Below are positions 13,168 to 34,082 of a stretch of DNA of 64,000 nucleotides, piece after piece. Each line of letters begins with the position of its first letter. Within the stretch, counting starts at the first letter, position 1. The notes under the pieces are model-generated. The model did not search any database. It had not been told where the DNA came from and saw only the letters and a program-made list of their open reading frames with translations. Source of the stretch: a bacterium (GTDB lineage: Bacteria > Zixibacteria > MSB-5A5 > WJJR01); assembly GCA_021813505.1 (NCBI GenBank), contig JAKAKI010000034.1, positions 10,059 to 74,058 on the forward strand, given 5' to 3'. Position numbers and translations under genes: made by a program.

Positions 13168-15339
13168 TTATGGATTCAGCAGAATCATCCCGCCTTTAAT
13201 TGTGTTGGAGGCCTGCGCGGTTGATGAGACCATGGCACCCGAGGTATCGTTGGCGGTGGTGGCCTTCGACTGAATAGTCTGACCCTCGATCTTTACACCT
13301 GCGGTACTGATCGTGATCGTGCCCCCGGCGCCCTTGATCTCAACCGTTCCGTCGAGCTTCATAGTGAGTTCGCTGCCACCGCATTTGACGTGAAACTTGT
13401 CGGATTGAACCGTGATATCGTAGGGGCCCTTGATATTGTCCGTCTTGGTTCCCGTCAGCACGTTGAGCGCTTCATTCCCGGTGTTGACGTTGACGGTACG
13501 GTTGCCCGTGAGAATGTTGAGTTCGTCGTTACCGGTGTTGACGTTCACGGTCCGGTTGCCTGTCAGGACATTGTGCTCGTCATTGCCGGTGTTGACGTTG
13601 ATAGTGCGATTCCCGGTGTGAACCGTGACCTTCTCGTTTCCATCCTGGATGTCCTCGGTACGATCTCCCTTGATCGTAATTGTCTCTTTGCCGTTGACCG
13701 TTTCCGTGCGGTCGTTGGTCACCGTGGTCGTTTCGTCATGTGTAACCGTCTTGGTGCGGTCGTGGCCGATCGAGAGCGACTCGTCGTGGCCCGTGGATTG
13801 GTTCTTGTCGTTGACGGTTGTGATCGTCAGGTTCTTCTGGGCATGCTGGTAGATCTCCTCGGAACCTTTCTTGTCCTCGAATCGGTATTCGTTGAAACCA
13901 CCGTGGCCCTTGGTGGAATCCGACTTGATCGTGCTCTTGGTCTTTTCCTGATCCAGCGGGTAGGGCGGCATGTTGTCGCCATTGTAGATGCGCCCGACGA
14001 TGATCGGCCGGTCGGGATCCCCTTCGAGAAAATCTACGATGACTTCGTGGCCGATCCGAGGAATCCACATCGCTCCCCAACTGGCACCCGCCCAGAGCTG
14101 GGAAACACGAATCCAGCAGGATGATTTTTCATTGCGCTGTCCTTCGCGATCCCACGGGAACTGCACTTTGACGCGGCCGTATTTGTCGACGTAAATCTCC
14201 TCACCGGACGGCCCGGTCACGACAGCGGTCTGTGTACCCTCAACCACCGGCTTGGTCGTCTTTCGCACAGGACGGTATGGCGTGTTCGAGGGAATGCACT
14301 GGAAACGATTGTCATAGGTGAACCGGCCGCTGGCATCATCCTGCCCCAGTGGCTGGGTGCCGACATGCCGCACCGAGATCAGCAGATATTCCTGGTTGAA
14401 CGAATTGCGCGTGTAGTCGGCGAGCGTGAATTTGTACCCCGGCACGAGCCGGCGGCAAACGCTCTGCCCTTCACCCAGCAGCCGTTTTGCCTGGGATGAT
14501 TCCAGACGTATCCGGGTGAGCTCGGCGCCGGTCCCCTCGTCCATGTAGAGTCCGGGAAACTCGTAGACTTCGAGTGCGGGATCGCGGTCCGCCGCCTGGT
14601 TCTTGGTCAGGTCGAGTGTCGGCCGCTCGAAGTTGTAGTCGCGCAGGACGGACGTGCCGGACTTGATCTGCTGCGAATAGCGGAAGTCGTAGATAAATTC
14701 CTCGGCTTCGACCGCTCCCGACGGATCGCGGAAGACGACATCACTGGCGCCGTCGATGGGGACATAGACATCGCTCGAATCGGCCATCACCAGGACTTCT
14801 TTGCCTTCCTGATGTTCGAAGAAGTAGAAGATCCCCTCCTCTTCGAGAAGCCGGGAGATGAAGTTCCAGTCACTCTCGCGGTACTGCACACAGTAATCGC
14901 GCTTCACATAGTTTGTCCGCTGCAGGGCAAACCGGAAATAGTCGGATTGGATTTCTGCGTCGGTCAGTACCTGTTCGACGATCTCCTTGACAGTCTTTTC
15001 CTGAAAGATCCGGCTCTTGGAGCGCTGGGTGAGCAGCCACACCCGGGGCACGAATTCGGCGTAATACGGAGTGAACGTCTCACCGGCGACCCCTTGCTCG
15101 AACCGGCTGACAATGCCGTAGATGGATCGCGTACCGTCCTCGTAGTTGATGTCCAGTTGTGCGGGGATTCCGACGATGGCATCCAGATCGATTTCGCCAT
15201 CACGCGCCGCGAGCTCGATTTTGAAACTGAACAGCTCGCTCATCCCTTCCGTGCCGTTGACACGCAGGACGCGCAACTCATCGGAATAACCGTCGGACTC
15301 GAACGTGAAGATCGATTCATCGGAAAGCAGGCTAGGCAT
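13168..15339 (-). CDS. vgrG: T6SS spike protein VgrG (TssI)
   Basis: The N-terminal gp27-like region is followed by a gp5-like region (...VSQLWAGASWGAMWIPRIGHEVIVDFLEGDPDRPIIVGRIYNGDNMPPY...). The C-terminal beta-helix has tandem TGNRTVNVNTGNDExNxL repeats. There is no C-terminal effector extension. Confidence 0.95.
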   Translation of the reverse strand: MPSLLSDESIFTFESDGYSDELRVLRVNGTEGMSELFSFKIELAARDGEIDLDAIVGIPAQLDINYEDGTRSIYGIVSRFEQGVAGETFTPYYAEFVPRVWLLTQRSKSRIFQEKTVKEIVEQVLTDAEIQSDYFRFALQRTNYVKRDYCVQYRESDWNFISRLLEEEGIFYFFEHQEGKEVLVMADSSDVYVPIDGASDVVFRDPSGAVEAEEFIYDFRYSQQIKSGTSVLRDYNFERPTLDLTKNQAADRDPALEVYEFPGLYMDEGTGAELTRIRLESSQAKRLLGEGQSVCRRLVPGYKFTLADYTRNSFNQEYLLISVRHVGTQPLGQDDASGRFTYDNRFQCIPSNTPYRPVRKTTKPVVEGTQTAVVTGPSGEEIYVDKYGRVKVQFPWDREGQRNEKSSCWIRVSQLWAGASWGAMWIPRIGHEVIVDFLEGDPDRPIIVGRIYNGDNMPPYPLDQEKTKSTIKSDSTKGHGGFNEYRFEDKKGSEEIYQHAQKNLTITTVNDKNQSTGHDESLSIGHDRTKTVTHDETTTVTNDRTETVNGKETITIKGDRTEDIQDGNEKVTVHTGNRTINVNTGNDEHNVLTGNRTVNVNTGNDELNILTGNRTVNVNTGNEALNVLTGTKTDNIKGPYDITVQSDKFHVKCGGSELTMKLDGTVEIKGAGGTITISTAGVKIEGQTIQSKATTANDTSGAMVSSTAQASNTIKGGMILLNP
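13447..13608 (-). repeat. In-frame 3 x 54-nt tandem repeat encoding the VgrG beta-helix (TGNRTxNVNTGNDExNxL x3)
   Basis: Three consecutive 54-nt units share ...ggtgttgacgtt.... This is a coding repeat, not a CRISPR array. Confidence 0.7.
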
Positions 15340-15621
15340 TTCACACCTCGTGGGCGGGATTCACTTCGTGACCCAGTAGACCTCTTACGGCTTCACGCAG
15401 GTTCATGGCGATCATCAACAGGTCTCAGTTTCATGCCACGTCATCGCGTGAATCTTTGGTTCGTGCCGCGCGCATTTGCTTCGGTGATCACCGGTTTGGA
15501 TTTCTCCACGGCGGCCCATCGGCACGTTCAAACGGCTTCCTCCAGCAATATCTTCCTGGTTTGCGGCGCGGAAGCCAATCGCCGTAACGGTGATTTCACC
15601 GCAGACTTCATACGATCCTGG

Positions 15622-18309
15622 CTACTTTGCCGCGGCCACACCGCCGTCACCGAATTCAAACGTGAATTCGCCGTCTCCCCCGATACCGAGAGTCAGCGCC
15701 TCGGGCAGCGGCCCCAACGTCATGCGCTCCAGGATCTCGGTCGAAATCCGGGGCAAGAGCGTGCCCTGAAGGATGTGGTCGATATTGCGCGCACCGGTTT
15801 CGACCTCGGTGCAGCGCGCCGCGATCTGGCCGACCACGTCGTCACTGTAGAGAAGCTTCATCTTGTGGCTTTCCGCCAGACGATTGACCAGCCGTCCCAA
15901 CTTGAGAACTACGATCCGCTTGATCGCCTCGGATTTGAGCGGGAAAAACGGCACGATGGTCATGCGCCCGACCAGCGCCGGTTTGAAATGCTTGTTGAGC
16001 ACCGGGCGTATGGCCGATGTGACCTGCTCGTGCGTTGGCGGTGGATCTTGAAGTCCCAACTCGGTGATAATGTCGGTTGCGAGATTCGAGGTCAGGAAGA
16101 CAACCGTGTTCTTGAAATCGATCACCCGTCCTTCGCCATCGGAGAGCATGCCTTTGTCGAAGACCTGATAGAACAGGTTCATGACTTCCGGGTCCGCCTT
16201 CTCGACCTCGTCCAGGAGCACGACCGAGTAGGGGCGTTGCCGCACGGCCTCGGTCAGAACTCCGCCCTCGCCAAAGCCGACATAGCCCGGAGGCGAGCCA
16301 ATCAGACGCGACACCGTGTGTTTCTCCTGGAACTCGGACATGTTGATCGTGGTCATGAAGCGTTCACCGCCGAACAGCAGATCGGCGACACCGAGTGCGG
16401 TTTCGGTTTTACCCACACCAGATGGACCGACGAACAGAAACACGCCGATCGGTTTGGAAGGGTCTTGAAGTCCAGCCTTGGCCGCGCGGATACCGGTCGC
16501 AACCGAACTCACGGCAAAGTCCTGCCCCTTGATCCGCTCCTTGAGCTTCTGGTCGAAAGTGAGTACTGCTTGGGCCTCGTCCTTGACCATCTTGCCCACG
16601 GGAATGCCGGTCCAGTCGGCAACGACTTTGCCGACGACATCGGGCGAAACCTCCAGCGGAATCATCGGGTCGGGACCTTGAACTTTTTCCAGTTCCGCGA
16701 GCGCGGCTTTCAAATCACCGGCGGTAGCCGGTTTGTCTGGGCTGTCTGGCGTATCACCGGCTGGAGCGGCTCCGCCGATCTTACCGAGCACGGAGTCGCG
16801 GACCTTCAAGTATTGGTCGACCGCCTCTTTCTCCTTGAGCCAGCGTTCTGTGTGTTCGTTCAGATCTTTTTGAAGCGTGGAAATGCGCGACTCCAAATCA
16901 GCGATGCGCGCATCGTCCGCCTCTCCCTTGCTGCCCAAATCCCGGCGATAGGCGTCGCGTTCGCGCGAGAGCGTCTGAATCTGGCGATCCAGGTCTTCGA
17001 GCGAATCCGGTCGGCCGGTGAGCCCGATCTTGACGCGAGCCGCAGCGGTGTCGATCAGGTCAACGGCCTTGCGCGGAAGCTGGCGTCCCGAAATGTACCG
17101 TCCCGACAGTTCCGCTCCTGCGACAAGCGCGCTATCCGGAATATGCACATTGTGGGCGGCCTCGTACTTCTCGCGCAAACCGCGCAACATCACGATGGTC
17201 TGGGCCACTGATGGTTCATCCAGCTTCACAAGCTGGAAACGGCTGGCAAGGGCGGGGTCTTTCTCGAAGTATTTCTTGTACTCGGACCATGTCGTGGCGG
17301 CGATCGTGCGCAATTCACCGCGCGCCAATGCCGGCTTCAATAGGTTTGCGGCATCAGAGCCACCGGCTGAGCCACCGGCGCCGATAATCGTGTGGGCCTC
17401 ATCAATGAACAGAATGATCGGCTTGGGGGAGGCTTTGACCTCGGTGATCACCTGTTTCAACCGGTTTTCGAATTCACCTTTGACACCAGCGCCCGCCTGG
17501 AGAAGTCCCAAGTCGAGAACAAGCAGCGACACATCTGCCAGGAAAGCCGGGACATCGCCCTGCGTCACGCGCAACGCCAGACCTTCGACGACCGCCGTCT
17601 TGCCGACACCGGATTCGCCCACCACGATCGGGTTGTTGCGGCGGCGCGCTGCCAGAATGTCGATCATCTGGCGGATTTCGCGATCACGCCCGAAGACCGG
17701 ATCGATCTCCCCGGCGCGTGCACGGGCCGTAAAATCGAGACAGAAGCGCCCGAGGGCGCCTTCCCCAGTCGGAGCCCGGCCCGCTTCTCCAGGTGCGCCG
17801 CCACCGGCCGGTGTCGCGGCCCGCGCCTGTTCGGATTCGACCGACGCGTCGAGAATCGAGCGAAATTCCTTGACCAGGACCGAACTATCGACTCCGGCAA
17901 GCTCGAGGATCTCGCCGCCAACGAGGTAGCGATTCGGATTGTCGAGCAAGGCCATCAGGAGCGTACCGGAACGCAAGAGCGGTTCGCCAAGATTGATCGA
18001 TCCGATCATCCACGCTTCTTCAAGCCATTTGGGCAACAGCGGCGAAAACACCGGCTTGCCGGTGTTGCCGGTCTTGAATCCCTCGACATTGTGCTGCAAC
18101 GCCCCGGTGACACGCGACGGCTCGATTTCGAAATGCCGCAGAATGATCTGCAAGTCGGCATTCGGATGATCCATCAATTTGAGCATCAGATGGTCGACCG
18201 TGATTTCGTAATGCGAGCGGCCGACGCATAATCCCGCCGCATTCTCAAGTGCCGTGCGGCTGAAATTGTTCAGCTTGCGAACGAGTGCAATAGGTTCCAA
18301 CTTCGCCAT
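15622..18309 (-). CDS. clpV: T6SS AAA+ ATPase ClpV (TssH)
   Basis: It has the ClpV-type N-domain (MAKLEPIALVRKLN...LENAAGLCVGRSHYEITVDHLMLKLMD), two Walker-A AAA+ modules (GESGVGKT, GPSGVGKT) and a coiled-coil middle domain. Confidence 0.93.
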   Translation of the reverse strand: MAKLEPIALVRKLNNFSRTALENAAGLCVGRSHYEITVDHLMLKLMDHPNADLQIILRHFEIEPSRVTGALQHNVEGFKTGNTGKPVFSPLLPKWLEEAWMIGSINLGEPLLRSGTLLMALLDNPNRYLVGGEILELAGVDSSVLVKEFRSILDASVESEQARAATPAGGGAPGEAGRAPTGEGALGRFCLDFTARARAGEIDPVFGRDREIRQMIDILAARRRNNPIVVGESGVGKTAVVEGLALRVTQGDVPAFLADVSLLVLDLGLLQAGAGVKGEFENRLKQVITEVKASPKPIILFIDEAHTIIGAGGSAGGSDAANLLKPALARGELRTIAATTWSEYKKYFEKDPALASRFQLVKLDEPSVAQTIVMLRGLREKYEAAHNVHIPDSALVAGAELSGRYISGRQLPRKAVDLIDTAAARVKIGLTGRPDSLEDLDRQIQTLSRERDAYRRDLGSKGEADDARIADLESRISTLQKDLNEHTERWLKEKEAVDQYLKVRDSVLGKIGGAAPAGDTPDSPDKPATAGDLKAALAELEKVQGPDPMIPLEVSPDVVGKVVADWTGIPVGKMVKDEAQAVLTFDQKLKERIKGQDFAVSSVATGIRAAKAGLQDPSKPIGVFLFVGPSGVGKTETALGVADLLFGGERFMTTINMSEFQEKHTVSRLIGSPPGYVGFGEGGVLTEAVRQRPYSVVLLDEVEKADPEVMNLFYQVFDKGMLSDGEGRVIDFKNTVVFLTSNLATDIITELGLQDPPPTHEQVTSAIRPVLNKHFKPALVGRMTIVPFFPLKSEAIKRIVVLKLGRLVNRLAESHKMKLLYSDDVVGQIAARCTEVETGARNIDHILQGTLLPRISTEILERMTLGPLPEALTLGIGGDGEFTFEFGDGGVAAAK

Positions 18310-18373
18310 TAATCATCCCTTCCTTCAACAGCCATGAAATCTGAGACCACCCAACGGGGCCCCATGCCGTCCA

Positions 18374-19375
18374 CTATGCAAACACCACGGACACGTCCGC
18401 TGATGCTTCCGAAAAGAGCCCCGTCGTCCAGCCCAAATGCGAGTCCTTCGAAAGTGTCACTCCCAGCCTGGGGGTCATGTCACCGCGCAGGATCACCTCG
18501 ATGTCAAAGTCGAGCCAGTCGGGGCACGCCAGTTTCGCCAGGTTCCGCATCGTCGTCAACTTCTCCCGACCGGGCAGGAATTCGCAATACGTATCGAAAT
18601 CGACGGGGCCGACCGCGACCCGGAATTTCCCCATCCGGTCCGAGGTCCGCTTCCCAATGGTTGCATCATCACCCAGACGGCACGAATTGCGCCCCAGCAG
18701 ACACTGCAGCCCGGCGGGCAGATAAAACCATCGCCGGACACATTGGTGAACCCGTACCGGCAGCCCGGCAAAGTAGGTCCGCAGCATCGACGCGACGGCG
18801 GCCGCCGAGCGAGGCTTTTGACAGAATAAACCGGCAAAACGCAGCAGATGCGCCGACGGTACGCCGGCCTGTGACGGATCGGCATCCGCACCCAAGCCGG
18901 ATAATGCAAACAAGCGCCAGGAATACTCATCCGATGCGTCCGGCTGATACATCATGTGACCGCGGAACTTCAGCAGGCCGCGCGTCAATAGGGAGAGAAG
19001 CCGGTGGTTGAAGATATCGAGGAAGGAGCGGATTGGATCGTCTTCGTCGGCGCGGTGAAGAATTTGCTCGGCATAGAAACCCGGCAGCGGGGAATGGGCG
19101 CCGTACAGTCCCATGAAGGCTACCGTCACGTCGTAGCGCGGCAGTTCACCCGGAATCCGCTCGACCTTCTCGATGTCTCCCGGTGGAAACGTGAGAGAAG
19201 TGCTCGGGCGCAGACGAACGCCTTCCTGGTTCGATGGGCCCTGGAAGCCGACGGGCAGAGTGCCGTACTGAGACCGCGAGAGCAGCCACATCGCCTGAAT
19301 GAAGGCGAAATGCGCGGCCCGTGTCTCGAGTGCTTCGCCTACAGTAATGCGTGCTGGCCCAGCATCGGTGGCCAT
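18374..19375 (-). CDS. tssG: T6SS baseplate protein TssG
   Basis: TssG/ImpH-like sequence (ITVGEALETRAAHFAFIQAMWLL...). The gene is between tssF and clpV and overlaps tssF by ~37 bp. Confidence 0.8.
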   Translation of the reverse strand: MATDAGPARITVGEALETRAAHFAFIQAMWLLSRSQYGTLPVGFQGPSNQEGVRLRPSTSLTFPPGDIEKVERIPGELPRYDVTVAFMGLYGAHSPLPGFYAEQILHRADEDDPIRSFLDIFNHRLLSLLTRGLLKFRGHMMYQPDASDEYSWRLFALSGLGADADPSQAGVPSAHLLRFAGLFCQKPRSAAAVASMLRTYFAGLPVRVHQCVRRWFYLPAGLQCLLGRNSCRLGDDATIGKRTSDRMGKFRVAVGPVDFDTYCEFLPGREKLTTMRNLAKLACPDWLDFDIEVILRGDMTPRLGVTLSKDSHLGWTTGLFSEASADVSVVFA

Positions 19376-21084
19376 TCGTAAATCCCGCCCTGCTGTGTGC
19401 CTTTAACACGCAGCCGTGTGAACGCGTTCATGGTCACGTACAGATTGAGAAAATTGTTGAGAACGGAGGCGAACAAGTACATGTCGCCTTCACCCGCGAA
19501 TTGGTCCTCATTCAGGTCAAGAGCGATCGAAACACCACGGTAGGTCGATCCATGCCGGAGGATCTCGTCCGGGTGCGCTTTGATGGCCGTGATTCCAGAG
19601 AGCCGCAGCTCATTGGCCCGGGCGGCCTGACGATCCACCAGCGCATGGAAATTGTAAAGTCCCAACAGACCGCGGAGCGACTCCAGATTGGTGAGCGAGA
19701 GGTAATTGAGCGACTGATGGGCGATGAGCCGCCAGAGCAGCCGTCCCTCCAGAGGCGGAGATACCGAGGTGGTCACGCGCGCGATATTCTCGAATGCGGC
19801 GAACGCCGGGGACTGCGAGGTGGCGACACTGATATCGCCGGGCCGGAGTTTTTCCCCGAGGTGCCGGTTGCTGCACGTCAGGTCGGCCGCCACGGTTTCG
19901 GTGGACGGCATGATGCCGGTTTCCCCGGCCGTGACAAACGACAGGTAGGTTTCGGTGCCGTGTCCCACTGTGGCCGGCCGCAACCGCAGTTGGTAATATT
20001 CCCGCTTCTCGTTGCCCGGCGCAGACGTGTGCTGGTATGTGAAAAACGGGAGGTACTCGTGCTCCCGAACGGTTCCGCGCAACCAACCCAGCACCCGGTC
20101 GACGGAGAACACTTCATAATGGTCCGGATTCGGACTGTCGGCCCGCAGACGATACTCGGTTTTCTCAAAGTCCACGCGAATCGGCGAGGAGCGAATCGAC
20201 TGCAAATTCACGATCGGCGTACAGCCGATGCGCACCGAGCCGGGGGCAACGCGCAACGTGTCCGGAGGCCGCTGATCGAACTCGATAATGATATCGAACC
20301 GCCCGCCGGCATCCATCCGAGCCAGAGGCGAAAGATCATGCAGATCGATAAACAGGAATTTCTCCGGCAGGGAGAAGTACTCCTGGAGCAGCCGGTACCC
20401 TGGGAAGGCATCGGTAGGATATGGCAGAAGGGCATCGCTGTCGGAAAACCCGCCGGCCGACAATGCATCGCGATCGAGGCGGACCTGACGATCCCCCACA
20501 CGATACGTCACCGCACGCGTGTGGCGGCATAGCCATAGATAGAGACCAAATGCAATCGCGGGCTCCCCGTGCAAGTACAGCCGGAGGGCGCCGAGATTGA
20601 GCTTGGCGAGATTGGCTTTCTCAGAAACAGTGAATCCCAGTGTCAGCGTCGACGGCTTCGACAATGGAACATCGAGATTTGTCGCATCCAGACTGAATGG
20701 ATAGAGCAGAACATCGGATGTCGTTTGGAACCGGCAGCGGGTCCCATCCACGGGAACCGAATCCAGATCGGTGCCGCGAGGAATTGTTTGGACGTCCTGC
20801 AGAGTGGCCGTCGGCCGGAACTGGACCACCGACATGGCCGGAATCGGACGCAAATAGTGGGGCCAGAGCAGGCCGACGAATGCGTGAGTCAGCTCCGGCA
20901 GTTCGCTATCCAGACGCTGCCGGATACGGCCGGTCAGGAACGCGAATCCTTCCAACAAGCGCTCGACGTCCGGATCGGTACCGGTTTCGGCAAGCATGTG
21001 GCCGATCTGGGGGTGCGCGTGCGCGAATTCCTGCCCCAGTTGGCGAAGATACGTCAGTTCGTCCTGATAGTATTTATTGAACAT
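19339..21084 (-). CDS. tssF: T6SS baseplate protein TssF
   Basis: The N-terminus MFNKYYQDELTYLRQLGQEFAHAHPQIGHMLAE is the characteristic TssF/ImpG start. The protein is 581 aa. Confidence 0.88.
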   Translation of the reverse strand: MFNKYYQDELTYLRQLGQEFAHAHPQIGHMLAETGTDPDVERLLEGFAFLTGRIRQRLDSELPELTHAFVGLLWPHYLRPIPAMSVVQFRPTATLQDVQTIPRGTDLDSVPVDGTRCRFQTTSDVLLYPFSLDATNLDVPLSKPSTLTLGFTVSEKANLAKLNLGALRLYLHGEPAIAFGLYLWLCRHTRAVTYRVGDRQVRLDRDALSAGGFSDSDALLPYPTDAFPGYRLLQEYFSLPEKFLFIDLHDLSPLARMDAGGRFDIIIEFDQRPPDTLRVAPGSVRIGCTPIVNLQSIRSSPIRVDFEKTEYRLRADSPNPDHYEVFSVDRVLGWLRGTVREHEYLPFFTYQHTSAPGNEKREYYQLRLRPATVGHGTETYLSFVTAGETGIMPSTETVAADLTCSNRHLGEKLRPGDISVATSQSPAFAAFENIARVTTSVSPPLEGRLLWRLIAHQSLNYLSLTNLESLRGLLGLYNFHALVDRQAARANELRLSGITAIKAHPDEILRHGSTYRGVSIALDLNEDQFAGEGDMYLFASVLNNFLNLYVTMNAFTRLRVKGTQQGGIYEWPPMLGQHALL

Positions 21085-21105
21085 TTAGACTCGTCGCTCG
21101 AAAAA

Positions 21106-21525
21106 TCACTCCACGACTTCGATTCCCGTTGCCGAACCGACGTTGGTCGTGAATGACACCGGGACATCCTTGTCATCGGTCACCAGACGGGCGGTTATCT
21201 CAAAACGAATATTCAGTGGGTCGTCCTCGTCCGGCACCCACGTGGCGCGGACGTTCTTGAGCCGGGGCTCGTACTTCTCGATGGATGTCTGGATTGCCTG
21301 GCGCATCGGCTCTTTGGATTCCGGGAAGGCATACATGAATTCGTTTAAGTCCGGAATGCCATAATCGGGCTGCGCAGGTGCGTGACCATGGCGGCTGTTG
21401 AGCATGTTTCGCAGGTGGCCGAGAACCGAACGCCGCAGCCGGGCGACATCAAGCCGGGTCACATGCCCGCCTTGCGGAGTGGATGCGGCGAGCCGCTCGA
21501 ACAATGTGCGATCGTTGATCACCAT
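21106..21525 (-). CDS. tssE: T6SS baseplate wedge protein TssE (gp25-like)
   Basis: A 139-aa gp25/GPW-like protein between hcp and tssF (...LRRSVLGHLRNMLNSRHG...). Confidence 0.82.
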   Translation of the reverse strand: MVINDRTLFERLAASTPQGGHVTRLDVARLRRSVLGHLRNMLNSRHGHAPAQPDYGIPDLNEFMYAFPESKEPMRQAIQTSIEKYEPRLKNVRATWVPDEDDPLNIRFEITARLVTDDKDVPVSFTTNVGSATGIEVVE

Positions 21526-21651: not shown

Positions 21652-22140
21652 CTACTGCCGGCGGACGCGCCAGTCGTCTTCGGCCGCGATTCCATCAGGC
21701 TCCCACGTCCACATGATCTTGCGATACGTGAACGAGATGTCTTCCATGTGCGAGTAGCTCGCGAATTGGGGATCGAGACAGCAAGGCGTGTTCGGACGCA
21801 CGGATACCACGATGGCGTCCTCCAGTGCGATGGTGAAGTAATGTTCTTCGGTCCCGGCGGGATCGATGCGGTACCATTTGAGGGTGACGTTCTTCATCCG
21901 CTCGCCTTCGCACAGGGCCTTGTACAGCTTTGGCGAGGCCTTGTCGTAGACCTTGGTGATCCTCATCGGATTGTGAACGCGCAGCCCGGTCGGCTGGCCG
22001 CTCTGCGGATCGCGCGGGATGGCGATTTCGTGCTCGAACGCCTGGCAGAGAATCGTGCCCTCCCGGCCTGTTTGGTCGCAGGACCCCTCAATGTTACCCT
22101 GATTGACGCCCTCGAGCGTCATGTAGAATGGCATTGGCAT
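21652..22140 (-). CDS. hcp: T6SS inner tube protein Hcp (TssD)
   Basis: The start MPMPFYMTLEGVNQGNIEGSC... has a perfect SD (cacAGGAGGaagctgtcATG) at 22138-22140. The protein is 163 aa, Hcp size. The track ORF extends 49 codons further upstream with no SD. Confidence 0.9.
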   Translation of the reverse strand: MPMPFYMTLEGVNQGNIEGSCDQTGREGTILCQAFEHEIAIPRDPQSGQPTGLRVHNPMRITKVYDKASPKLYKALCEGERMKNVTLKWYRIDPAGTEEHYFTIALEDAIVVSVRPNTPCCLDPQFASYSHMEDISFTYRKIMWTWEPDGIAAEDDWRVRRQ

Positions 22141-26106: not shown

Positions 26107-26122
26107 TTCAACATCCTCTGCA

Positions 26123-27151
26123 TCAGGCCTGCACGGCGCGGATGAAATCCTTCAATGACATGTTCGGCATATCGAGCGCCGAGGCCACTGATTCGCCCAG
26201 CTGGTCGCGCGCCGTGTCGAGGCGGTCGCTTCCCATAGTCTCAATATTCCAGATTGAATCATGCAAGGTTTGCGGTGCGAACAAATAGGAGAACATGTTC
26301 GACGCCGGAGCGCGAAAGAACAGATAGCACCCGGTGGGGGATCCTTCCCCGCCGGCGAACCAAAAGAGCACGGACTGGTCCAGCGGGTTGCCGCCCAGAG
26401 TTGCCTGGCAAAGCCGCAGCCATGTGGCGGTCTGCAAACCCACCTGATCCGGATCTCCCGAGGTCGGCATGCGCATCGCAAACCCAAAACGAGAAACGTC
26501 GTGGCCGCGCCGTGGAGCGAGCGTGGCAAACACGTTCTTAACGACCAGGTACTTTCGGCGGTCCTGAAAATCTCCGTAGAGTCCCCGCCAGAAAGACTCC
26601 ATCGTTACATCGCTCAAATATCGATCGAATCGCTGTTGCGATTCCACCAGATTCTGCGGCAGGATCGACGCCAAATTCATAATCTGTGCGGCGCGATGGT
26701 TATCGATTCCGTCGGCGCAATCGACGACGGCGATTCGCCGTGCCGCATTAAGGAACATCGCATATCCTTGCGGGACAACATGAAACGCTGAACCGCCCCG
26801 CCCCAGCGCGGCATGCGCAAAAATCAGAAACGGGTAGCGCCGCCCCCCGTGATCCCGCCCTGGACGGCAGACCCCGACCAAGGCCTCGGCGGGGTCTTTC
26901 GACCGGAATACAAAACACAGCGGCGCTGCATGATCAAAGGCGGCCTCCCAGCCATTCCCCATCTGCGTGCGCATTGCGGACAGCCCCTCCTGCATCCATG
27001 TATCCAGGACGCGCGCCAAGGGACTCCCTGCGTTCATACGCACGAAATCGGGATGCGACGGAAGCTTCCCGAACAATCCGACCAGTGGTGCCGCCATTAC
27101 TGCTTTGATCCCTCCACGCCTATGAGTCTTGTACGCTGTCCCGGTCGACAA
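26123..27151 (-). CDS. tagF: T6SS-associated protein TagF (ImpM/DUF2094)
   Basis: MAAPLVGLFGKLPSHPDFVRMNAG matches the TagF GxFGKLPxxGDFV signature. The gene is directly downstream of tssM. The true start may be the internal ATG near 27097. Confidence 0.8.
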   Translation of the reverse strand: MSTGTAYKTHRRGGIKAVMAAPLVGLFGKLPSHPDFVRMNAGSPLARVLDTWMQEGLSAMRTQMGNGWEAAFDHAAPLCFVFRSKDPAEALVGVCRPGRDHGGRRYPFLIFAHAALGRGGSAFHVVPQGYAMFLNAARRIAVVDCADGIDNHRAAQIMNLASILPQNLVESQQRFDRYLSDVTMESFWRGLYGDFQDRRKYLVVKNVFATLAPRRGHDVSRFGFAMRMPTSGDPDQVGLQTATWLRLCQATLGGNPLDQSVLFWFAGGEGSPTGCYLFFRAPASNMFSYLFAPQTLHDSIWNIETMGSDRLDTARDQLGESVASALDMPNMSLKDFIRAVQA

Positions 27152-27187: not shown

Positions 27188-30100
27188 CTATCGACACACC
27201 GACTGAGGGCATTGGAATTGGGAGAACCGATGATTCAGGATGAAATCGGCGCCCTCTCCGGTGACCGTGAGCACGACTTTCTGGGTCTGTCCCGTACGGG
27301 CCTTAAACGTCCAGATCAAATTGGAACCGGACCGCTCGGCCTGATCGATCAAGTGGAACAGTCCCCAATCCCCGCTGTATTGCAGCGGCTGGAAGAAGAC
27401 GCCGTTGGTGGTCGATTCGATGGACAACTCGGTCCTGGCATCGCCAACCTGCGGCCACACGTACTCCACCGGGTACGGAGTGCCGGAGACATATTCAAGG
27501 TCCGGGAAACCGGCATACTTGAACCGCAGCACCTTGATTCCGGCCATGCTCCGCGCATCAGCCACCATGCTGAATCGGAGTTTCTCGCGCCCTTTCTTCA
27601 AGACACGCTGGATCTGCTGCGCTTTTTCGATCTGGTCCTGGAATCCGCCGGGAACGGACACTCCTCCCGCACCACCAAGCTCCGAGGTCACGAAATCGGA
27701 AAACTTATCGAAGAACGACTCCATGTTGGCTCGATCCACGCCTCCGTCATCGGTCTGCGTGAACGGATACATGCCGCTCAGGTTCGTGTTGTAGAAGTCG
27801 TAGACGCGGGCTTTCCACGCCTGATCCAGGCAGCCACAGCCACCGAGGAATGCCGCGCTCTGGGCTCCGCTGATGGGCTGACAGAGCAATTTGGCGGCAT
27901 CCTGCGCCAAATCGGATTGGTTGAGAAGCTTTTCGACGTTTCCGGAGATTTCGCGCATGTCGCGTCCGAAATCACGCAACGCGTCGCCGCAGTGGGCGCC
28001 CCCCTCCAGCTTCTTCTGAACCTCCTTGAGCTTGCCTGCCACCTGGCCGAGAAGCTCGTTGTACGTCTTCTTGGGCGGATCCCCGCTGGCCTGAATCAAA
28101 CCGAAGAACCGCCCCAACGGTGTGAACTGCTGCTCCACTTTCTTCGCGGATTCCTTATCGAGGTCTTTCAGGTTGCCCTGTTCATACACCTTGTTCAGGA
28201 CCGTGAGCGCGGGAGAGTTGTCGCCCGTGAATTCCTTGAGGCCATCGTTGGCATCGTCCAAATCGCGGAACGTGGAGATCATTCCTGATTGAATGAACTG
28301 CCGCCAGACCGCGATGAACTCGGTCACATATTTCTGCGTGAGCCGCTGCTGAATCTGTTCGTCTGTAAACATCGAGAAGGCCGGCTTCTTCATTGGGTCG
28401 GCCCTCAGCACCTCCGGCATGCGTTCAATGGCGGGCTGAACGTCTTTTTGCCAGGTTTCGGCCATGAACGCACGAGGGACGCGCACTTTTCCGCTGAGCC
28501 TGATTGAGGCCGGTACGGCTTCCGAGTATGTGAATTCCGATTCCTTGCTGCTGATATCGCTGATCATCACATTGTAAATCAGGTCCATCGTCCAGTGGCT
28601 GTTCATCTGCGAAGTCGCGAAGGACAGCACCCGCTGGCTTCCTGAGGCTCGCAGCCACCGGATCGTCGCATCCGGGCGGTACTTCCAATAGAAGGGCAGC
28701 TGCTTCTCATTCAACTGAGCGAACTGCCGGAAGGATTCCTGATCCATGGAGGACTGGAAGATCGAATCCACCTGATCACGGAGCGTGCCAGTCGCCTGCG
28801 ACGCGGAATCGTAGGGAACAGTCAGCATCTGGTACGCGGTAAACGTCGTGTAATAGTTGATCACGTCCGTGTTCGAAGCGGCGCGATCAAGGGGCAGCAT
28901 CAGCTTGTCCGCCAGACGCTGGGCGACCGGCTCCAGCAGGATGTCGTGGTATCGCTGGAAGTAGACTTCAAGCCCCTTGCGGACGACTACATCACCGCTA
29001 TAAAGCCCCCAGCGCAGCCGGAGCGGGATGCTGGCGCCTGCCCTGGCCAACTCATCGCGCAACTCATCAAGCGTGTTGAGCGCACTCACAGAGGGACTTG
29101 CCTGAGAGCTCGTGGCATCCGCAACACGTTTGATCGTTGCCGCCAGTTCCGCGTTGTGACTGCAGTTGTTGACGTAGGAAGTGCCCATGGCGAGGATGAG
29201 CAATCCGGATACGACCGCTTGCGCGGCCATGGCGGCGATCCGAAAAGCCCGGCGCCGCCTCGCGGCCTTTGTCGTGGGGTAAACCTTGGCTTCGTCGGGA
29301 AGTATGATCTCCTGGAAGAGATCCTTGATGAAATAGGCCTTGGTCTCCTTGGGCGGTTCGAATTGCGCCATGAAATCCGACACCAGGCCGAAATCCTTCT
29401 GCATGGATTCCATCACCTGGGCAATCGGAGTCCCTTCCTGGGTGCCGCTCGTAAAGTAGAATCCGCGCACGAGAGGATTTTGCTGATAGGGATTCGGCTG
29501 GAACAGTGCTTCGACGAAGGTGGCGAGCTTCCGGCCGGCAGCGGCGAATTCAACGGAGAAAAGGTAGGTGCCGCGTTTCTGCGCTGGACGCATTTCACCG
29601 GCAAGCTGGCGCGAGCGGCGATTCTCCAGCACACCCGACAACAGGGCGAACTCCTGCTCAAACTCCTCACGCATGGGACGGCGGGCCGGCTCGTACTTGC
29701 GCGTCCAGCCCCAGATCTGTTCCCGGTCGGCCTTGGTGAAATCGCCGAAGAACTCGACAAACCCGGCGACCAGATCGCATTTGGTGAAGACAACGTAGAT
29801 GGGATACAACACTTGCAGCTTGACGATCAATTCATCAATGCGGCTGCGCATGGCGCGGGCGTGCGCCTCGATGCCGTCCGCATCCTGATGCAGAAGATCC
29901 GCCATCGAGACTGCCAAAATCAGTCCGTTGATCGGCGCACGGGGACGTGCCTTCTGCAGCATCTTCAGGAAATTCGACCATTCTTCCCGGTCTTCCTGAA
30001 CATTGGGAGAGAGTGTGTAGCGGCCCGCGGTGTCGAGGATGATCCCCTCATTGGTGAACCACCAGTCGCAATTGCGTGTGCCTCCCAGCCCTTTGACTTT

Positions 30101-30583
30101 CCCCGGATCCTCGGAGTCGGGATCGACCGGCGGGAAATGCAGCCCGGAATTGCGAATCGCTGTCGATTTGCCGGACGCCGACGGCCCGATGATCATGTAC
30201 CACGGGAGCACGTACAGCGCTTCGGCCCCCCGCCGCCCACGGGCAATGCGGGATTTCTTGAGAATCCCGACCGCGCGATTCATCTTCTCTTTGATCGCCG
30301 CGAGTTCGTCCTGAACATCCGGGCGTGAGGAGAGAAGTTGATCATCGGCCTGCTGGTTGAGAAATTTCTCCAGCATGCGCGCATTCTTCTTGGCACGCAG
30401 TTTCTTGATGAGCAGGTACAGGAGGAAACCGACGACGATGAGTATCGCCAGGCCGTAACACCACCAGCGATACTTGTACCCGACCACCCTCGGCCCCCAC
30501 AGGACCAGCACCAGAGCGATGACCAGCACCGCGCCCAGCGCGGCGAGTTTCGATTTGAGTATGGGCAGAAGGAGGCTGAACAT
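27188..30583 (-). CDS. tssM: T6SS membrane complex protein TssM (IcmF family)
   Basis: A 1131-aa protein with N-terminal TM helices, a Walker A motif (GPSASGKST) and an IcmF-like periplasmic region. Confidence 0.93.
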   Translation of the reverse strand: MFSLLLPILKSKLAALGAVLVIALVLVLWGPRVVGYKYRWWCYGLAILIVVGFLLYLLIKKLRAKKNARMLEKFLNQQADDQLLSSRPDVQDELAAIKEKMNRAVGILKKSRIARGRRGAEALYVLPWYMIIGPSASGKSTAIRNSGLHFPPVDPDSEDPGKVKGLGGTRNCDWWFTNEGIILDTAGRYTLSPNVQEDREEWSNFLKMLQKARPRAPINGLILAVSMADLLHQDADGIEAHARAMRSRIDELIVKLQVLYPIYVVFTKCDLVAGFVEFFGDFTKADREQIWGWTRKYEPARRPMREEFEQEFALLSGVLENRRSRQLAGEMRPAQKRGTYLFSVEFAAAGRKLATFVEALFQPNPYQQNPLVRGFYFTSGTQEGTPIAQVMESMQKDFGLVSDFMAQFEPPKETKAYFIKDLFQEIILPDEAKVYPTTKAARRRRAFRIAAMAAQAVVSGLLILAMGTSYVNNCSHNAELAATIKRVADATSSQASPSVSALNTLDELRDELARAGASIPLRLRWGLYSGDVVVRKGLEVYFQRYHDILLEPVAQRLADKLMLPLDRAASNTDVINYYTTFTAYQMLTVPYDSASQATGTLRDQVDSIFQSSMDQESFRQFAQLNEKQLPFYWKYRPDATIRWLRASGSQRVLSFATSQMNSHWTMDLIYNVMISDISSKESEFTYSEAVPASIRLSGKVRVPRAFMAETWQKDVQPAIERMPEVLRADPMKKPAFSMFTDEQIQQRLTQKYVTEFIAVWRQFIQSGMISTFRDLDDANDGLKEFTGDNSPALTVLNKVYEQGNLKDLDKESAKKVEQQFTPLGRFFGLIQASGDPPKKTYNELLGQVAGKLKEVQKKLEGGAHCGDALRDFGRDMREISGNVEKLLNQSDLAQDAAKLLCQPISGAQSAAFLGGCGCLDQAWKARVYDFYNTNLSGMYPFTQTDDGGVDRANMESFFDKFSDFVTSELGGAGGVSVPGGFQDQIEKAQQIQRVLKKGREKLRFSMVADARSMAGIKVLRFKYAGFPDLEYVSGTPYPVEYVWPQVGDARTELSIESTTNGVFFQPLQYSGDWGLFHLIDQAERSGSNLIWTFKARTGQTQKVVLTVTGEGADFILNHRFSQFQCPQSVCR

Positions 30584-30614: not shown

Positions 30615-31301
30615 CTACATGCGCGACAAACTCCGCACCGCATCGTCCGCATTGGAGTGAGAGAGATAATTGAGCACAACGAATATGAGAAAGAGCACCA
30701 CCATGCATGCCAGCGTGACCGCCCACCAGGGCAGTTCCTTCTTGACCCGTTCCAGAAGTTCATCCGGAGGCGCCCAGTGCGGCGAGAGATCAATGACGCG
30801 TCCCCTGATCCGCTCGATGTCACGCCCCAGAGCCTCAATCAAGCTGCGCAACTGGCGCGGATCGACCAGCGCGTACTTGCCCTCGAAACCCAGCGCCAGG
30901 CAGGTGTAGTAGACCTCGAGCACGCCCACCCGGGCCTCCGCGCGAAGCCGGAGTTCATCGAGCCGGCTGAAGAACTCGTCGCCCGCGTTGTTGGTGCTGA
31001 AATACTCCAGCGCCAGCGGGCGCTGTGCCCAGTCGCGTTTTCCGAACCAGTCGGAGCGGGCGATCGCTTCATCGATAAACGCGGTGAGAGCGAAGCGCGC
31101 CGACAGGATGTCCTCGGTGGCGATGGACGCCATCCGGGCGTCGCGTTCGATGCCGGCGAACATCGAGGCGACATTGGCGCGCAGTTGCTGGACGTCACCG
31201 AAGTCCCGCCCCTGCACAAGTGTCAGGATCAGAGAAAAGGCCCGCTCACATACTTTGGAAAGGGTCGCGGACACAGGTTCTGCCGCCGTTTTGGCCGCCA
31301 T
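30615..31301 (-). CDS. tssL: T6SS membrane complex protein TssL (DotU family)
   Basis: DotU-like cytoplasmic domain with a C-terminal TM helix (WWAVTLACMVVLFLIFVVL). No OmpA extension. Confidence 0.83.
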   Translation of the reverse strand: MAAKTAAEPVSATLSKVCERAFSLILTLVQGRDFGDVQQLRANVASMFAGIERDARMASIATEDILSARFALTAFIDEAIARSDWFGKRDWAQRPLALEYFSTNNAGDEFFSRLDELRLRAEARVGVLEVYYTCLALGFEGKYALVDPRQLRSLIEALGRDIERIRGRVIDLSPHWAPPDELLERVKKELPWWAVTLACMVVLFLIFVVLNYLSHSNADDAVRSLSRM

Positions 31302-31348: not shown

Positions 31349-32707
31349 TCATTTCTGCACCGCCAGACATTCGATATCCATCGACGGAAATTCCTGAGGC
31401 GGAACGTAAATCGCGATTTGTGACGCGTTCTTAATGTAATCCCATCGGTCGCCCCGGGGATCGATCCGGAAGTAGACCATCCCGGCCTTGCGCGGAATGG
31501 CGGCCGGCGGCAATTGCACGAATACCAGACCGGCGCCCGGAATGGCATTGCCGATGAGACGGCTGATCATGGCCGGTGAGATGACCTTGGCATACTTGGG
31601 GAATTCGCCTGCGATCTTGCTTTCGGACAGCTCGGCCGTGACGCCCAAATAAAAGTCTGAATTCGTAAACAACTCCGCGTCACTGATGTCACCATCGTAA
31701 CGGCCGGCATCGAGCCGCCGGAGCGGAATCTTCACGTACCGCGCCTCGACGGTTGCTTCCAGCAATTCGCGCAATTTCGAAATCAACGGAACGAACACGC
31801 CACCCAGATCATCGTGGCGGTAGATCGGCAGATTCCGGGGATGTTCACCGATCTTGAACGCACACAAGTTTCCGGCGTAGCGCGAGAGAATGTCGAACAA
31901 CTGCACCGGGTGCACGCTGCGCGGGTAGCTGTGCATGTGCACCAGCGGCGGTATGTAGGCATTGACCGTGTGCAGCTTCAGGAAGTTCGGCATGTCCGAT
32001 GTCGAGAATTCGGTCAGCAGCGGCGTCCGCTGCCGCACCTGGTCGGCCAGAGACTGAGCCTTGGCCGAGGCAGTCTCCAGCAGACCGCGGAGTTGATTGG
32101 TAAGCCAGGGGGATGCGCTCACCGATAGCAGCGGGGGAACGAATGTCTCGTGCAACTGGGGAACACCCTCGGCATTGCGCTCGATCTCCGCCACCTTGAT
32201 ACAATCGAAACCGTCGACGTCCTCACCGGAAAACAGCAGCGTCAGACGCTTCTTGGCGACTGGGATTTCGCGCTCATTCTCGCCGGTGACCTCATCGGCA
32301 ACGGTCGAAAAAGTGCGCACGAACCGCGTGGGTGTCCGGGGTTCCTGCTCTTCCATCTTGACCCCGGGAGCGCCGCCACGCAAACGGGGCAACCCGAGAT
32401 ATACGGACAGGACTTTTTCCGTCGGCTTGAAGTAGCTGTCGAATGATCGTGACGGCGGCGCATCGTCGACAGACGGCGCCCGCACCGTGGTTCCATCCGG
32501 AAGAATTCCGTCGAATTCCGTGAGGGTGAAGAGCCGGTTGGCGACCGCCTCGGTATCGATGAGGATGTGTGCTGCTCCCCAGGCAAAGGGTACCAGCGAC
32601 CGCGCCAGGAACCACCGATCCTGCTCATGGAATGTGTCGAATTGCTGAAAGTGATGCTGGGTCAGGAAGAGACCTTCACTCCAAAGCACCTTATGATACT
32701 GAGCCAT
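31349..32707 (-). CDS. tssK: T6SS baseplate protein TssK
   Basis: The N-terminus MAQYHKVLWSEGLFLTQHHFQQFD is the canonical TssK start. The protein is 452 aa. Confidence 0.9.
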   Translation of the reverse strand: MAQYHKVLWSEGLFLTQHHFQQFDTFHEQDRWFLARSLVPFAWGAAHILIDTEAVANRLFTLTEFDGILPDGTTVRAPSVDDAPPSRSFDSYFKPTEKVLSVYLGLPRLRGGAPGVKMEEQEPRTPTRFVRTFSTVADEVTGENEREIPVAKKRLTLLFSGEDVDGFDCIKVAEIERNAEGVPQLHETFVPPLLSVSASPWLTNQLRGLLETASAKAQSLADQVRQRTPLLTEFSTSDMPNFLKLHTVNAYIPPLVHMHSYPRSVHPVQLFDILSRYAGNLCAFKIGEHPRNLPIYRHDDLGGVFVPLISKLRELLEATVEARYVKIPLRRLDAGRYDGDISDAELFTNSDFYLGVTAELSESKIAGEFPKYAKVISPAMISRLIGNAIPGAGLVFVQLPPAAIPRKAGMVYFRIDPRGDRWDYIKNASQIAIYVPPQEFPSMDIECLAVQK

Positions 32708-32751: not shown

Positions 32752-33300
32752 TTACCGGGCCTTCTTGATGAAATCTCTGCCGACCTCAATCTTCACGCGT
32801 TGCTCGGTCTTCTTGGGAATGTTCAATGCCAGCCGCTCCTGGGCGACGCCGGCCGACCGGTAGAAGTCGGCAATGGCGCACAAAACCGGCTTTGCCTTTT
32901 TGACCTTAAAGTAATTTCCCTCCAGCTCCACGGTGGCTGTCCCTGAGGGGCTTACGATGACGCTGCCGCTGTCCAGGATGTCATTGCCGAGCACCGAGGC
33001 AAGCTGGTCGTGGTACGAGGGATTGAAGAAGACATCCTTATCGGTCCCGGTGAATCCCGCGGTGCTGGTCAACAGATACACTTTGACCCGGATCGTATGG
33101 GCCGAGTTGCCGTCGAAGTTCAAATCGGACGTCCCGTTGAGAACGACTTCGACGTGCATGGGCTTTTCCTGCTTGCCAAACAGCCAGCCGCATCCGGAGA
33201 TGGAAGTCAAAATCAAAATGCCAAGGCATGCAGTGGCGAACCTAGCTCCGATCCAGCGGCGCGTTGCCGGGCGCCTACCCTCATTGACAGTCAGGCTCAT
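32752..33300 (-). CDS. tssJ: T6SS outer-membrane lipoprotein TssJ
   Basis: Signal peptide with lipobox LTSISGC, ~180 aa. The gene is first in the J-K-L-M order. Confidence 0.78.
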   Translation of the reverse strand: MSLTVNEGRRPATRRWIGARFATACLGILILTSISGCGWLFGKQEKPMHVEVVLNGTSDLNFDGNSAHTIRVKVYLLTSTAGFTGTDKDVFFNPSYHDQLASVLGNDILDSGSVIVSPSGTATVELEGNYFKVKKAKPVLCAIADFYRSAGVAQERLALNIPKKTEQRVKIEVGRDFIKKAR

Positions 33301-34082
33301 TGATCCCCCTTGCCGGATGAGTGTTGATCCCCCTGCCGGGACTTCATTTTCGCGAGCATCACTTCACGATATCCCCGGCGGAATACAGGACGAAACAGCT
33401 TTTCGAACTGCCCGGTATCCTCGGATACCAGTTCTTGATAGCGCCTCTGATACTCTTTCCACAAGAGCAAATTCCGAAACGGATTCAGCCGCCGGAACAG
33501 GTTCGCGCCCCCATCCCCTTCTTTGCCAATGACTTCAGAACGGATCGTCTCCGGGGCCAGGGTGCGCAGGACCTCCAGGGTCCCCTCGCGGCTGCTTTGC
33601 TCGTAGCCGGCCAGGAGCGCCAACTGGTGGTATTTCAATTCGTCAATAGCGGCGCGCAGTTCTTTGATCTGGGTGTCATCGAGCGACGTCGATTTCCAAT
33701 CGAACAGGCGGCGCAGCATGTCCTGAAAATTCTCAGAACGCCATACGCGCGTCGCTGAGTCGGCCGCTGCGCGATCAAGGCCGAAGTCTTTCTGGAAGCT
33801 CTTGCGTCCCGATAAGAGTTCACGGAATTCCTGGATCAGGACATCGATCCCGTGGACAATGCGCTCGCAGAATGCGCGAATCTGGTCGGGATTCTCCAGC
33901 GCGGCCTCCTCGCCGGAGAAGCGATGCGCGAGACGTTCCAGGTAGTGCAATGCGGTCCGGTTCAATTCGAGCTGCTGCCGGAGACGGGCATTTTCCTCGC
34001 GCAATTTCTCGACTTCGCCGGTTCCACCGGCACTCACCTCGTCCATGGTTTTCCCTGTCTCCGAGCTCTTGCGATTTCGCAT
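33297..34082 (-). CDS. Hypothetical coiled-coil protein, first gene of the T6SS operon (possible accessory/regulatory component)
   Basis: A 261-aa, charged, heptad-rich protein (EVEKLREENARLRQQLELNRTALHYLERL...). Its stop overlaps the tssJ start by 4 bp. The upstream intergenic region carries a palindromic operator-like site. I recognise no family. Confidence 0.45.
   Translation of the reverse strand: MRNRKSSETGKTMDEVSAGGTGEVEKLREENARLRQQLELNRTALHYLERLAHRFSGEEAALENPDQIRAFCERIVHGIDVLIQEFRELLSGRKSFQKDFGLDRAAADSATRVWRSENFQDMLRRLFDWKSTSLDDTQIKELRAAIDELKYHQLALLAGYEQSSREGTLEVLRTLAPETIRSEVIGKEGDGGANLFRRLNPFRNLLLWKEYQRRYQELVSEDTGQFEKLFRPVFRRGYREVMLAKMKSRQGDQHSSGKGDQ

Follow-up and report, generated by a model that had tools for sequence, protein, structure and literature searches.

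Does a 64,000-nt stretch of contig JAKAKI010000034.1 (positions 10,059 to 74,058; hereafter the window) encode a complete type VI secretion system (T6SS), and if so, of which class, in what host and with what cargo? An earlier note, made from the sequence alone, had placed between positions 13168 and 34082 a complete single-array class i system (T6SS-i) of 13 core components plus TagF, all on the minus strand in the order tssJKLM-tagF-tssABC-hcp-tssEFG-clpV-vgrG. Our analysis makes it highly probable that the window carries an intact chromosomal class i, i1-like T6SS, that it belongs to an uncultured Candidatus Zixiibacteriota bacterium of the Fibrobacteres-Chlorobi-Bacteroidetes (FCB) group, and that it is equipped with its own loading and effector module.

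On the minus strand, the listing of open reading frames (ORFs) shows 15 consecutive ORFs without interruption from 34082 to 13168, ordered tagH-like-tssJ-K-L-M-tagF-tssA-B-C-hcp-tssE-F-G-clpV-vgrG and all co-directional, and in this listing no unassigned ORF breaks up the tssJ-vgrG array. Intergenic spacing ranges from a 37-nt overlap to 282 nt, the widest gaps being those between clpV and vgrG (282 nt) and between tssC and hcp (273 nt). The 13 core genes and tagF all scored above the curated Pfam and NCBIfam/TIGRFAM cut-offs; TssA, TssG and TssE, which the earlier note had named as examples of calls whose failure would count against it, each matched their own T6SS hidden Markov models (HMMs). 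Every structural gene is thus present, full-length and co-directional, and such an array is far beyond what could arise by chance. The completeness, gene list and gene order first proposed were therefore correct, and 14 genes of the interval had been rightly named; a fifteenth within it, encoding a TagH C-terminal domain at the head of the array, had been overlooked.

The individual assignments, all on the minus strand, are as follows. In the membrane complex, the outer-membrane lipoprotein gene tssJ (32752-33300) is the weakest call of the array (PF12790, 35.5 bits; TIGR03352, 43 bits against a cut-off of 31.6), and is backed by an ISGC lipobox in the signal peptide and by the position of the gene. 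It is accompanied by a short-form tssL (DotU; 30615-31301; 228 aa; PF09850, E = 8.3e-53; TIGR03349, 176.3 bits) and by tssM (IcmF; 27188-30583), the inner-membrane core of the complex, with PF14331, PF06761 and PF06744 and 589.9 bits to TIGR03348. The sheath is encoded by tssB (small subunit; 23930-24424; PF05591, E = 2.6e-52; TIGR03358, 174.2 bits) and tssC (large subunit; 22414-23895; PF05943 and PF18945; TIGR03355, 710.9 bits), and the tube by hcp (tssD; 21652-22140; PF05638, E = 4.9e-39; TIGR03344, 183.2 bits), whose product has 162 aa in the public record and whose start is that of the NCBI gene call in locus L001. TssA (24526-26106) is of the long form, combining ImpA_N and VasJ (PF06812, PF16989; TIGR03362, 349.2 bits), and its best solved structures, 6rju and 6riu, are each a TssA. 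Baseplate genes are tssK (31349-32707; PF05936, E = 8.8e-114; TIGR03353, 348.7 bits), the gp25-like tssE (21106-21525; PF04965; TIGR03357, 115.4 bits), tssF (19339-21084; PF05947, E = 6e-168; TIGR03359, 623.8 bits) and tssG (18374-19375; PF06996, E = 1.2e-82; TIGR03347, 281.7 bits). The sheath-recycling AAA+ ATPase gene clpV (tssH; 15622-18309) reached 1164.8 bits against TIGR03345 (cut-off 884.95), while its 775.7 bits against the ClpB model fell under that model's own cut-off. The spike gene vgrG (tssI; 13168-15339; PF05954, PF04717 and PF22178; TIGR03361, 640.8 bits) has no toxin extension.

Two further observations concern expression of the array. A GC-rich hairpin without a T-run (22364-22393, minus strand; arms GTTGCCCGCG and CGCGGGCAAC) stands right after the tssC stop codon in the 273-nt tssC-hcp gap, and might act in RNA processing or stability to set the ratio of hcp to sheath. 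The string TGGCAT-N-ATCGCA ahead of the tagH start was tried as a sigma-54 site and rejected for its wrong spacing.

With respect to class, T6SS-iii is excluded because TssJ, TssL, TssM and TssA are all present above cut-offs; class iii lacks these four proteins and has TssN, TssO and TssP instead (PMC8632748), and the TssJ-TssL-TssM complex and TssA are absent from classes iii and iv alike (PMC8632748). Among solved structures, TssC was matched best by that of Myxococcus xanthus (5URW; 768 bits over residues 3-492), followed by Vibrio cholerae VipB (709-739 bits), Pseudomonas aeruginosa H1 TssC1 (373 bits) and Francisella IglB (269 bits); no class iii reference was identified among these structure matches. 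TssC accordingly groups with class i, as initially supposed, and not with the class ii protein IglB.

The M. xanthus system is listed as subtype i1 (PMC13577199). When TssC was compared with all plasmids in PLSDB, the best match was a 371-kb Pseudomonas frederiksbergensis plasmid (67.9% identity), with Bradyrhizobium at 64.8%, Vibrio at ∼63%, Campylobacter at 57% and all remaining families at or below 48%; plasmid families typed i2, i3, i4 and i5 were all ≤48% identical, those typed i3 at ∼40-42%. In the published plasmid typing, the single 371-kb Pseudomonadaceae plasmid and the Campylobacteraceae are i1, Enterobacteriaceae and Erwiniaceae i2, Rhizobiaceae i3, and Burkholderiaceae and an Acidobacteria plasmid i4b (PMC9113992). 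Judged by these similarities, the sheath is i1-like, nearest to those of M. xanthus and V. cholerae, and not i3, ii or iii. Subtype i3 had been suspected from the H1-like gene order and was rejected on the 373 bits to P. aeruginosa TssC1 and the identity of only ∼40-42% to the i3 plasmid families.

In which organism does this machine reside? SecD, encoded on the same contig (55903-57603), matches one NCBI protein at 100% identity and a protein of a 'candidate division Zixibacteria bacterium' at 97%, and all named SecD relatives, from 97% down to 69% identity, are from Zixibacteria. A TssC with 100% identity occurs in an independent assembly, JACRMA010000042.1 (81,686 bp), from 'Candidatus Zixiibacteriota bacterium NC_groundwater_1895'; the SecD homologue of 97% identity probably lies on that contig as well. 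Since both identities point to Zixibacteria, and NCBI taxonomy places Candidatus Zixiibacteriota in the FCB group, the FCB host that the earlier note had offered conditionally is borne out. Every source is a metagenome-assembled genome (MAG), and a few close TssC relatives are recorded as 'Acidobacteriota bacterium' (L010) or 'uncultured Ignavibacteria' (L012, L022 and L026), so the contig might be imagined to be mis-binned or chimeric and really to derive from Acidobacteriota, Ignavibacteria or Myxococcota. However, the T6SS and housekeeping genes (SecDF, tRNAs) stand together in the 64-kb window of one 84-kb contig, which turned up independently in assemblies from NCBI (GCA_027457325.1), ENA and Logan and in JACRMA010000042.1, and the named SecD relatives at 69-97% identity are exclusively Zixibacteria. 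Moreover, the 'Ignavibacteria' locus L012 clusters tightly with the Zixibacteria locus L009, which suggests that record naming is inconsistent, and L010 is a contig of 6 kb. We see only a very slight chance that the host assignment is an artefact.

The lineage is less of a surprise than had first been implied, since T6SS-i has previously been reported in Gemmatimonadetes, an FCB phylum, and in several other non-proteobacterial phyla. The earlier note expected the FCB group to carry T6SS-iii more typically; class iii has been reported only in Bacteroidetes and not across the FCB group. Likewise, 'proteobacterial-type' proved a misnomer for this system, as its nearest TssC relatives are in Nitrospirota, Planctomycetota and Myxococcota.

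How the system came to be in this lineage was approached through gene orders in relatives, obtained from the blast annotation of 80 fetched loci together with gene calls for L086 and Candidatus Manganitrophus. The full 15-gene order was found in six loci of the Zixibacteria clade (L006, L008, L012, L022, L026 and L086) and in Nitrospirota (L014/L088 and L035); Planctomycetota loci L018, L031, L034 and L061 have essentially the same collinear order, and most Myxococcota loci have the tssK-L-M-tagF-tssA-B-C block only. In all, the 15-gene array of the window recurs in no fewer than nine other MAGs of the Zixibacteria clade. In a neighbour-joining tree of TssC, computed with no bootstraps, the Zixibacteria-named loci all fell in one clade, sister to Nitrospirota, which also holds the three 'uncultured Ignavibacteria' MAGs and the 'Acidobacteriota' contig L010. 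The nearest TssC outgroups are 64-74% identical to the window. L086, an abundant relative, has a TssC 85% identical to that of the window and the same array, and a SecD homologue of 70% identity is probably from the same organism. Relatives also differ in detail: in the Manganitrophus locus L088 an extra 263-aa ORF (12696-13487) lies between tssE and tssF, and L086 has a 216-aa ORF (17949-18599) between clpV and vgrG and a 156-aa ORF (20847-21317) between vgrG and the DUF2169 gene. The window has none of these three unannotated ORFs, which may be accessory genes specific to their lineages.

The upstream boundary of the array is formed by a tRNA-Ser(CGA) gene (34205-34292, minus strand; ARAGORN; Rfam, 46.7 bits), the 3' end of which faces the T6SS genes. 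As T6SS loci are patchy in distribution and often lie within islands (PMC9113992), this arrangement invites the proposal that the locus is a recent genomic island beside tRNA-Ser, its donor a proteobacterium or myxobacterium, instead of a trait native to Zixibacteria. However, no integrase was found, the tRNA-Ser 3' end is not repeated elsewhere in the window and no long direct repeats flank the locus; there is thus no island scar. GC content (0.57-0.61) is uniform over the cluster and its flanks, TssC of the Zixibacteria-named, three Ignavibacteria-named and one Acidobacteriota-named MAGs is monophyletic, the array is kept in L086 in spite of its divergence, and even the closest outgroups are distant in TssC. 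A recent island is for these reasons distinctly improbable. Based on the TssC clade, the L086 array, the flat GC profile and the lack of an island scar, the T6SS appears instead to be a long resident of the Zixibacteria clade. A sigma-70-like site (34300-34329) was also seen directly upstream of tRNA-Ser(CGA).

The gene overlooked at first, tagH-like (33297-34046, minus strand), is the first of the array and overlaps the tssJ start by 4 nt. Its first-ATG ORF reaches 34082, and the NCBI record begins at 34046 (249 aa). Only the C-terminal domain of TagH is present: residues 67-240 match PF20232 (T6SS_FHA_C; 49.5 bits, cut-off 23.7; E = 5.5e-13), while the full TagH model TIGR03354 gave 37.6 bits, below its cut-off of 120.25, and over model positions 330-417 only. 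A forkhead-associated (FHA) domain (PF00498) had no match in the protein even at E up to 1, and the N-terminus is a short coiled-coil-like segment. As the 10-kb flank cuts tagH in most of the fetched loci, FHA status was read from 21 homologues, L086 and Manganitrophus. Not one of the 21 homologues, which span 39-97% identity and 197-312 aa, contains an FHA domain: PF20232 is the sole domain in 20 of them, and the remaining one has no precomputed Pfam domain. The version in L086 is of 276 aa. In Ca. Manganitrophus, the protein encoded at the same position has 412 aa and both FHA and T6SS_FHA_C domains. Going by these homologues, the FHA-less TagH is a trait of the Zixibacteria clade, and loss of the domain is the derived state, because the sister Manganitrophus locus retains a full FHA-TagH at this position. 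Among the FHA-less proteins, which comprise the product of 33297-34046 and homologues P0241-P0261, some carry the record name 'FHA domain protein', a misnomer by which the domain loss would be hidden.

TagF, the second accessory protein (26123-27097, minus strand), is a predicted repressor with an N-terminal PF09867 domain (TagF_N; E = 4.9e-25, 88.5 bits) and 85 bits to TIGR03373 (cut-off 41.2). The NCBI call is of 324 aa, similar to the 326-327 aa of relatives, and the ORF extends to 27151 from a TTG. Its C-terminal 207 aa had no family match in Pfam at E up to 1, and the match to P. aeruginosa TagF (PA0076; 2QNU) was weak (1.5e-5). In P. aeruginosa and Agrobacterium tumefaciens, TagF keeps the system from firing by binding Fha/TagH (PMC5995506, PMC13584744), and certain species retain tagH without tagE/tagG (PMC13584744). 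In the window, neither the 19 genes of the array nor the flanking ORFs scanned had any match to Pkinase or PP2C domains (PpkA/PppA). The earlier note had seen no Fha/PpkA/PppA module and TagF as the only regulator; the former holds for PpkA and PppA, but TagF is not alone, since an FHA-less TagH remnant heads the array. Because PpkA and PppA are lacking and the TagH homologue has no FHA phosphopeptide reader, we infer that regulation is independent of threonine phosphorylation, and that TagF and the TagH C-terminal domain would form a checkpoint of this kind.

Below vgrG (13168) the co-directional series goes on by four genes, encoding a DUF2169 protein, an Rhs protein, a 254-aa ORF and a CxxCxxCC ORF, so that the functional locus extends from ∼6.1 or 6.8 kb to 34.1 kb. 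Array and downstream module together comprise 19 ORFs, every one uninterrupted. The DUF2169 protein (12023-13135, minus strand; PF09937, E = 4.1e-61), a putative adaptor or chaperone, begins 32 nt after vgrG, and a DUF2169 gene follows vgrG in relatives L011, L034, L041 and L086 as well. DUF2169 adaptors act as effector loaders in Agrobacterium, and by analogy this protein likely loads the Rhs effector onto VgrG.

The Rhs-family effector (7610-12019, minus strand; 1469 aa; RHS_repeat, E = 1.4e-72; DUF6531; RHS; TIGR03696 core at residues 1173-1247) is laid out as DUF6531, YD repeats, RHS-associated core and an orphan C-terminal domain of ∼220 aa (window 7610-8270), which is preceded by an 'IDPSGL' junction motif of the DPxGL type. 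The C-terminal 195 aa had no Pfam match and no PDB sequence match. An exhaustive HMMER search of 1.84 billion representative proteins returned a single homologue cluster, its own orthologue (P0262, 69% identity), and beyond that only one low-complexity match, and a single-sequence AlphaFold2 (AF2) model reached a pLDDT of 57, with a best Foldseek-PDB E-value of 0.54, which is meaningless. The orphan domain is a candidate for a new toxin. A HicA-like fold, considered for its helix-then-strands pattern, found nothing in support. The last ∼100 residues of the protein are Pro/Gly-rich and probably disordered. At the opposite end, PAAR-like strings (such as VMINGSPACCSG and 'VSVNGGSMALG') and a hydrophobic helix were noticed by eye in the N-terminus and were not counted as evidence.

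The 254-aa ORF (6849-7613, minus strand) overlaps the Rhs stop codon by 4 nt, an arrangement indicative of translational coupling, and is a candidate immunity protein. It had no family match in Pfam (including at E up to 1) or NCBIfam, and it ends with a CxxC...CxxC zinc-ribbon-like motif. The CxxCxxCC protein (6091-6852, minus strand; PF03692, E = 2.5e-7; no NCBIfam match) overlaps the 254-aa ORF by 4 nt in turn; its membership of the module is uncertain, and the two may constitute a two-gene accessory or immunity module.

By homology to characterised machines, TssJ, TssL and TssM would form an envelope-spanning membrane complex, and TssE, TssF, TssG and TssK with VgrG would form the baseplate. 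TssA would prime the Hcp tube to polymerise within the TssBC sheath, contraction of which would drive Hcp, VgrG and the Rhs effector into an adjacent cell, and ClpV would recycle the contracted sheath. Before firing, the DUF2169 protein would load the Rhs effector on VgrG; auto-cleavage of Rhs at the junction of core and C-terminal domain would then release the putative toxin, and the ORF coupled to the Rhs stop codon would protect the producer. TagF is retained, and firing would be regulated without threonine phosphorylation.

An intact machine could, conversely, be silent or serve ends that are not mainly antibacterial, such as action on eukaryotic grazers or the acquisition of metals and nutrients: the M. 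xanthus T6SS, the nearest relative to have been characterised, appears in a list of systems acting on fungi (PMC13577199), the Rhs toxin domain has no match to any known activity, and no promoter was recognised. Set against this are the 19 uninterrupted reading frames and the order of the cargo genes, given that a small ORF translationally coupled to the end of an Rhs effector gene is the classic interbacterial toxin-immunity layout (for general background, PMC3482391). We regard a silent or not mainly antibacterial machine as unlikely.

Several points do weigh against our view of an intact, armed, i1-like T6SS. The whole case is MAG sequence, and the machine is known here from its genes alone. 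The 228-aa TssL has no OmpA domain or other peptidoglycan-anchoring extension. Scans for sigma-70 promoters and terminators over 6000-36200 gave nothing over the shuffled expectation, and a search for the sigma-54 consensus gave 0 matches. The subtype was read from a similarity ranking and an unbootstrapped neighbour-joining tree that lacks labelled SecReT6 references. A PAAR or DUF4150 domain was not found by Pfam at E up to 1 in the Rhs N-terminus (residues 1-250 to 1-290), which also had no PDB match and yielded an unusable AF2 single-sequence model (pLDDT 36), and no PAAR or DUF4150 tip domain was recognisable elsewhere in the locus; PAAR is the 14th component in TXSScan and is present in under 45% of detected loci (PMC4793230). 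Finally, toxin activity and immunity are assigned to the Rhs C-terminal domain and the coupled ORF from position only. With these points taken into account, the intact class i, i1-like system with its effector module retains the high probability given at the outset.

The machine is a canonical one; all that sets it apart is the Zixibacteria groundwater host and a regulator, TagH, without its phospho-sensing domain. Published T6SS lists cover seven phyla, including the FCB phylum Gemmatimonadetes, and Zixibacteria are not among them; no paper in the library we searched treats T6SS in Zixibacteria, and literature searches on the assembly accession came back empty. NCBI records, for their part, already give the proteins automatic T6SS component names. 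With the window locus and no fewer than nine related loci from other MAGs, the T6SS list gains an uncultured FCB phylum of sediment and groundwater, which suggests that contact-dependent antagonism belongs to Zixibacteria ecology. With its conserved lack of FHA, TagH offers a deletion experiment done by nature on an accessory protein that is poorly understood. Understanding of the T6SS mechanism is unchanged by this locus.

We tentatively advance a broader, joint reading, while rather doubting that it will hold as a whole: a Zixibacteria-clade i1 T6SS in which FHA-less TagH and TagF would constitute a phosphorylation-independent assembly checkpoint, the Rhs C-terminal domain would represent a new toxin family, and the i1 lineage would be anciently common to Zixibacteria, Nitrospirota and Planctomycetota and hence not 'proteobacterial'. 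Were the checkpoint to be real, T6SS_FHA_C, and not FHA, would be the part that the machine needs.

Elsewhere in the window, further downstream of the T6SS locus, a role in anchoring the T6SS to peptidoglycan was weighed for motA/motB (4074-5806) and rejected, as MotA is a flagellar stator equivalog (351.5 bits, cut-off 303.8). A tandem pair of paralogous ORFs (686-1903, 405 aa; 1887-3014, 375 aa; minus strand) shares 69-74% DNA identity over 78-300 nt, and neither had a Pfam or NCBIfam match. Upstream of the T6SS, a long co-directional block (36095-47258, minus strand) encodes an ABC-2 permease and ATPase, two GWxTD-domain proteins, two MacB-type permeases, an ABC ATPase, an HlyD adaptor and an OEP/TolC-like outer-membrane protein, and resembles an efflux or export system partnered by GWxTD proteins.

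Among known systems, the M. xanthus T6SS (MXAN_4800-4813; 5URW/5URX; i1) supplies the top-scoring solved TssC and is, like the window's, a canonical class i machine. Polyangia/Myxococcota loci have the tssK-L-M-tagF-tssA-B-C block in common with the window, but in most Myxococcota loci tssE-F-G, clpV and vgrG are not collinear downstream of tssC. M. xanthus and its relatives also belong to another phylum, with a TssC clade separate from that of Zixibacteria. The closest correspondence in gene order is with Ca. Manganitrophus of the Nitrospirota (L014/L088), which has the identical 15-gene order, a TssC of 74% identity in the sister clade and a TagF of 326 aa. It differs in its FHA-bearing TagH of 412 aa, compared with the FHA-less 197-312 aa of Zixibacteria, in the 263-aa ORF between tssE and tssF, and in having DUF6484, not DUF2169, after vgrG.

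The gene order of the V. cholerae system (VipA/VipB; 3J9G, 5MXN) is, we assume, different from that of the window, with hcp and effector genes placed in auxiliary clusters. The likeness lies in the sheath, where VipB scored 709-739 bits against the window's TssC, and in the long-form TssA. V. cholerae also has tagH without tagE/tagG (PpkA/PppA), but its TagH retains FHA and TagF is unlisted for Vibrio (PMC13584744).

P. aeruginosa H1-T6SS (i3) is of a different subtype, given its weak TssC match of 373 bits as opposed to 768 for M. xanthus. Its two halves, fha-tssJ-K-L-M-tagF and tssA-B-C-hcp-tssE-F-G-clpV-vgrG, presumably have the same internal order as in the window, and we take them to be divergent in P. 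aeruginosa, whereas in the window they are joined co-directionally. The likeness extends to TagF, which is homologous to PA0076, and to the logic of TagF-Fha repression (PMC5995506). By contrast with H1, the window has no PpkA, PppA or TagQRST and no FHA domain on TagH, and its TssA is of the long TIGR03362 form. Lastly, the T6SS-iii of Bacteroidota is likewise a contractile machine of sheath, tube, baseplate and ClpV in another phylum of the FCB group; it is built with TssN, TssO and TssP and without TssJ, TssL, TssM and TssA, whereas the Zixibacteria system possesses all four of the latter.

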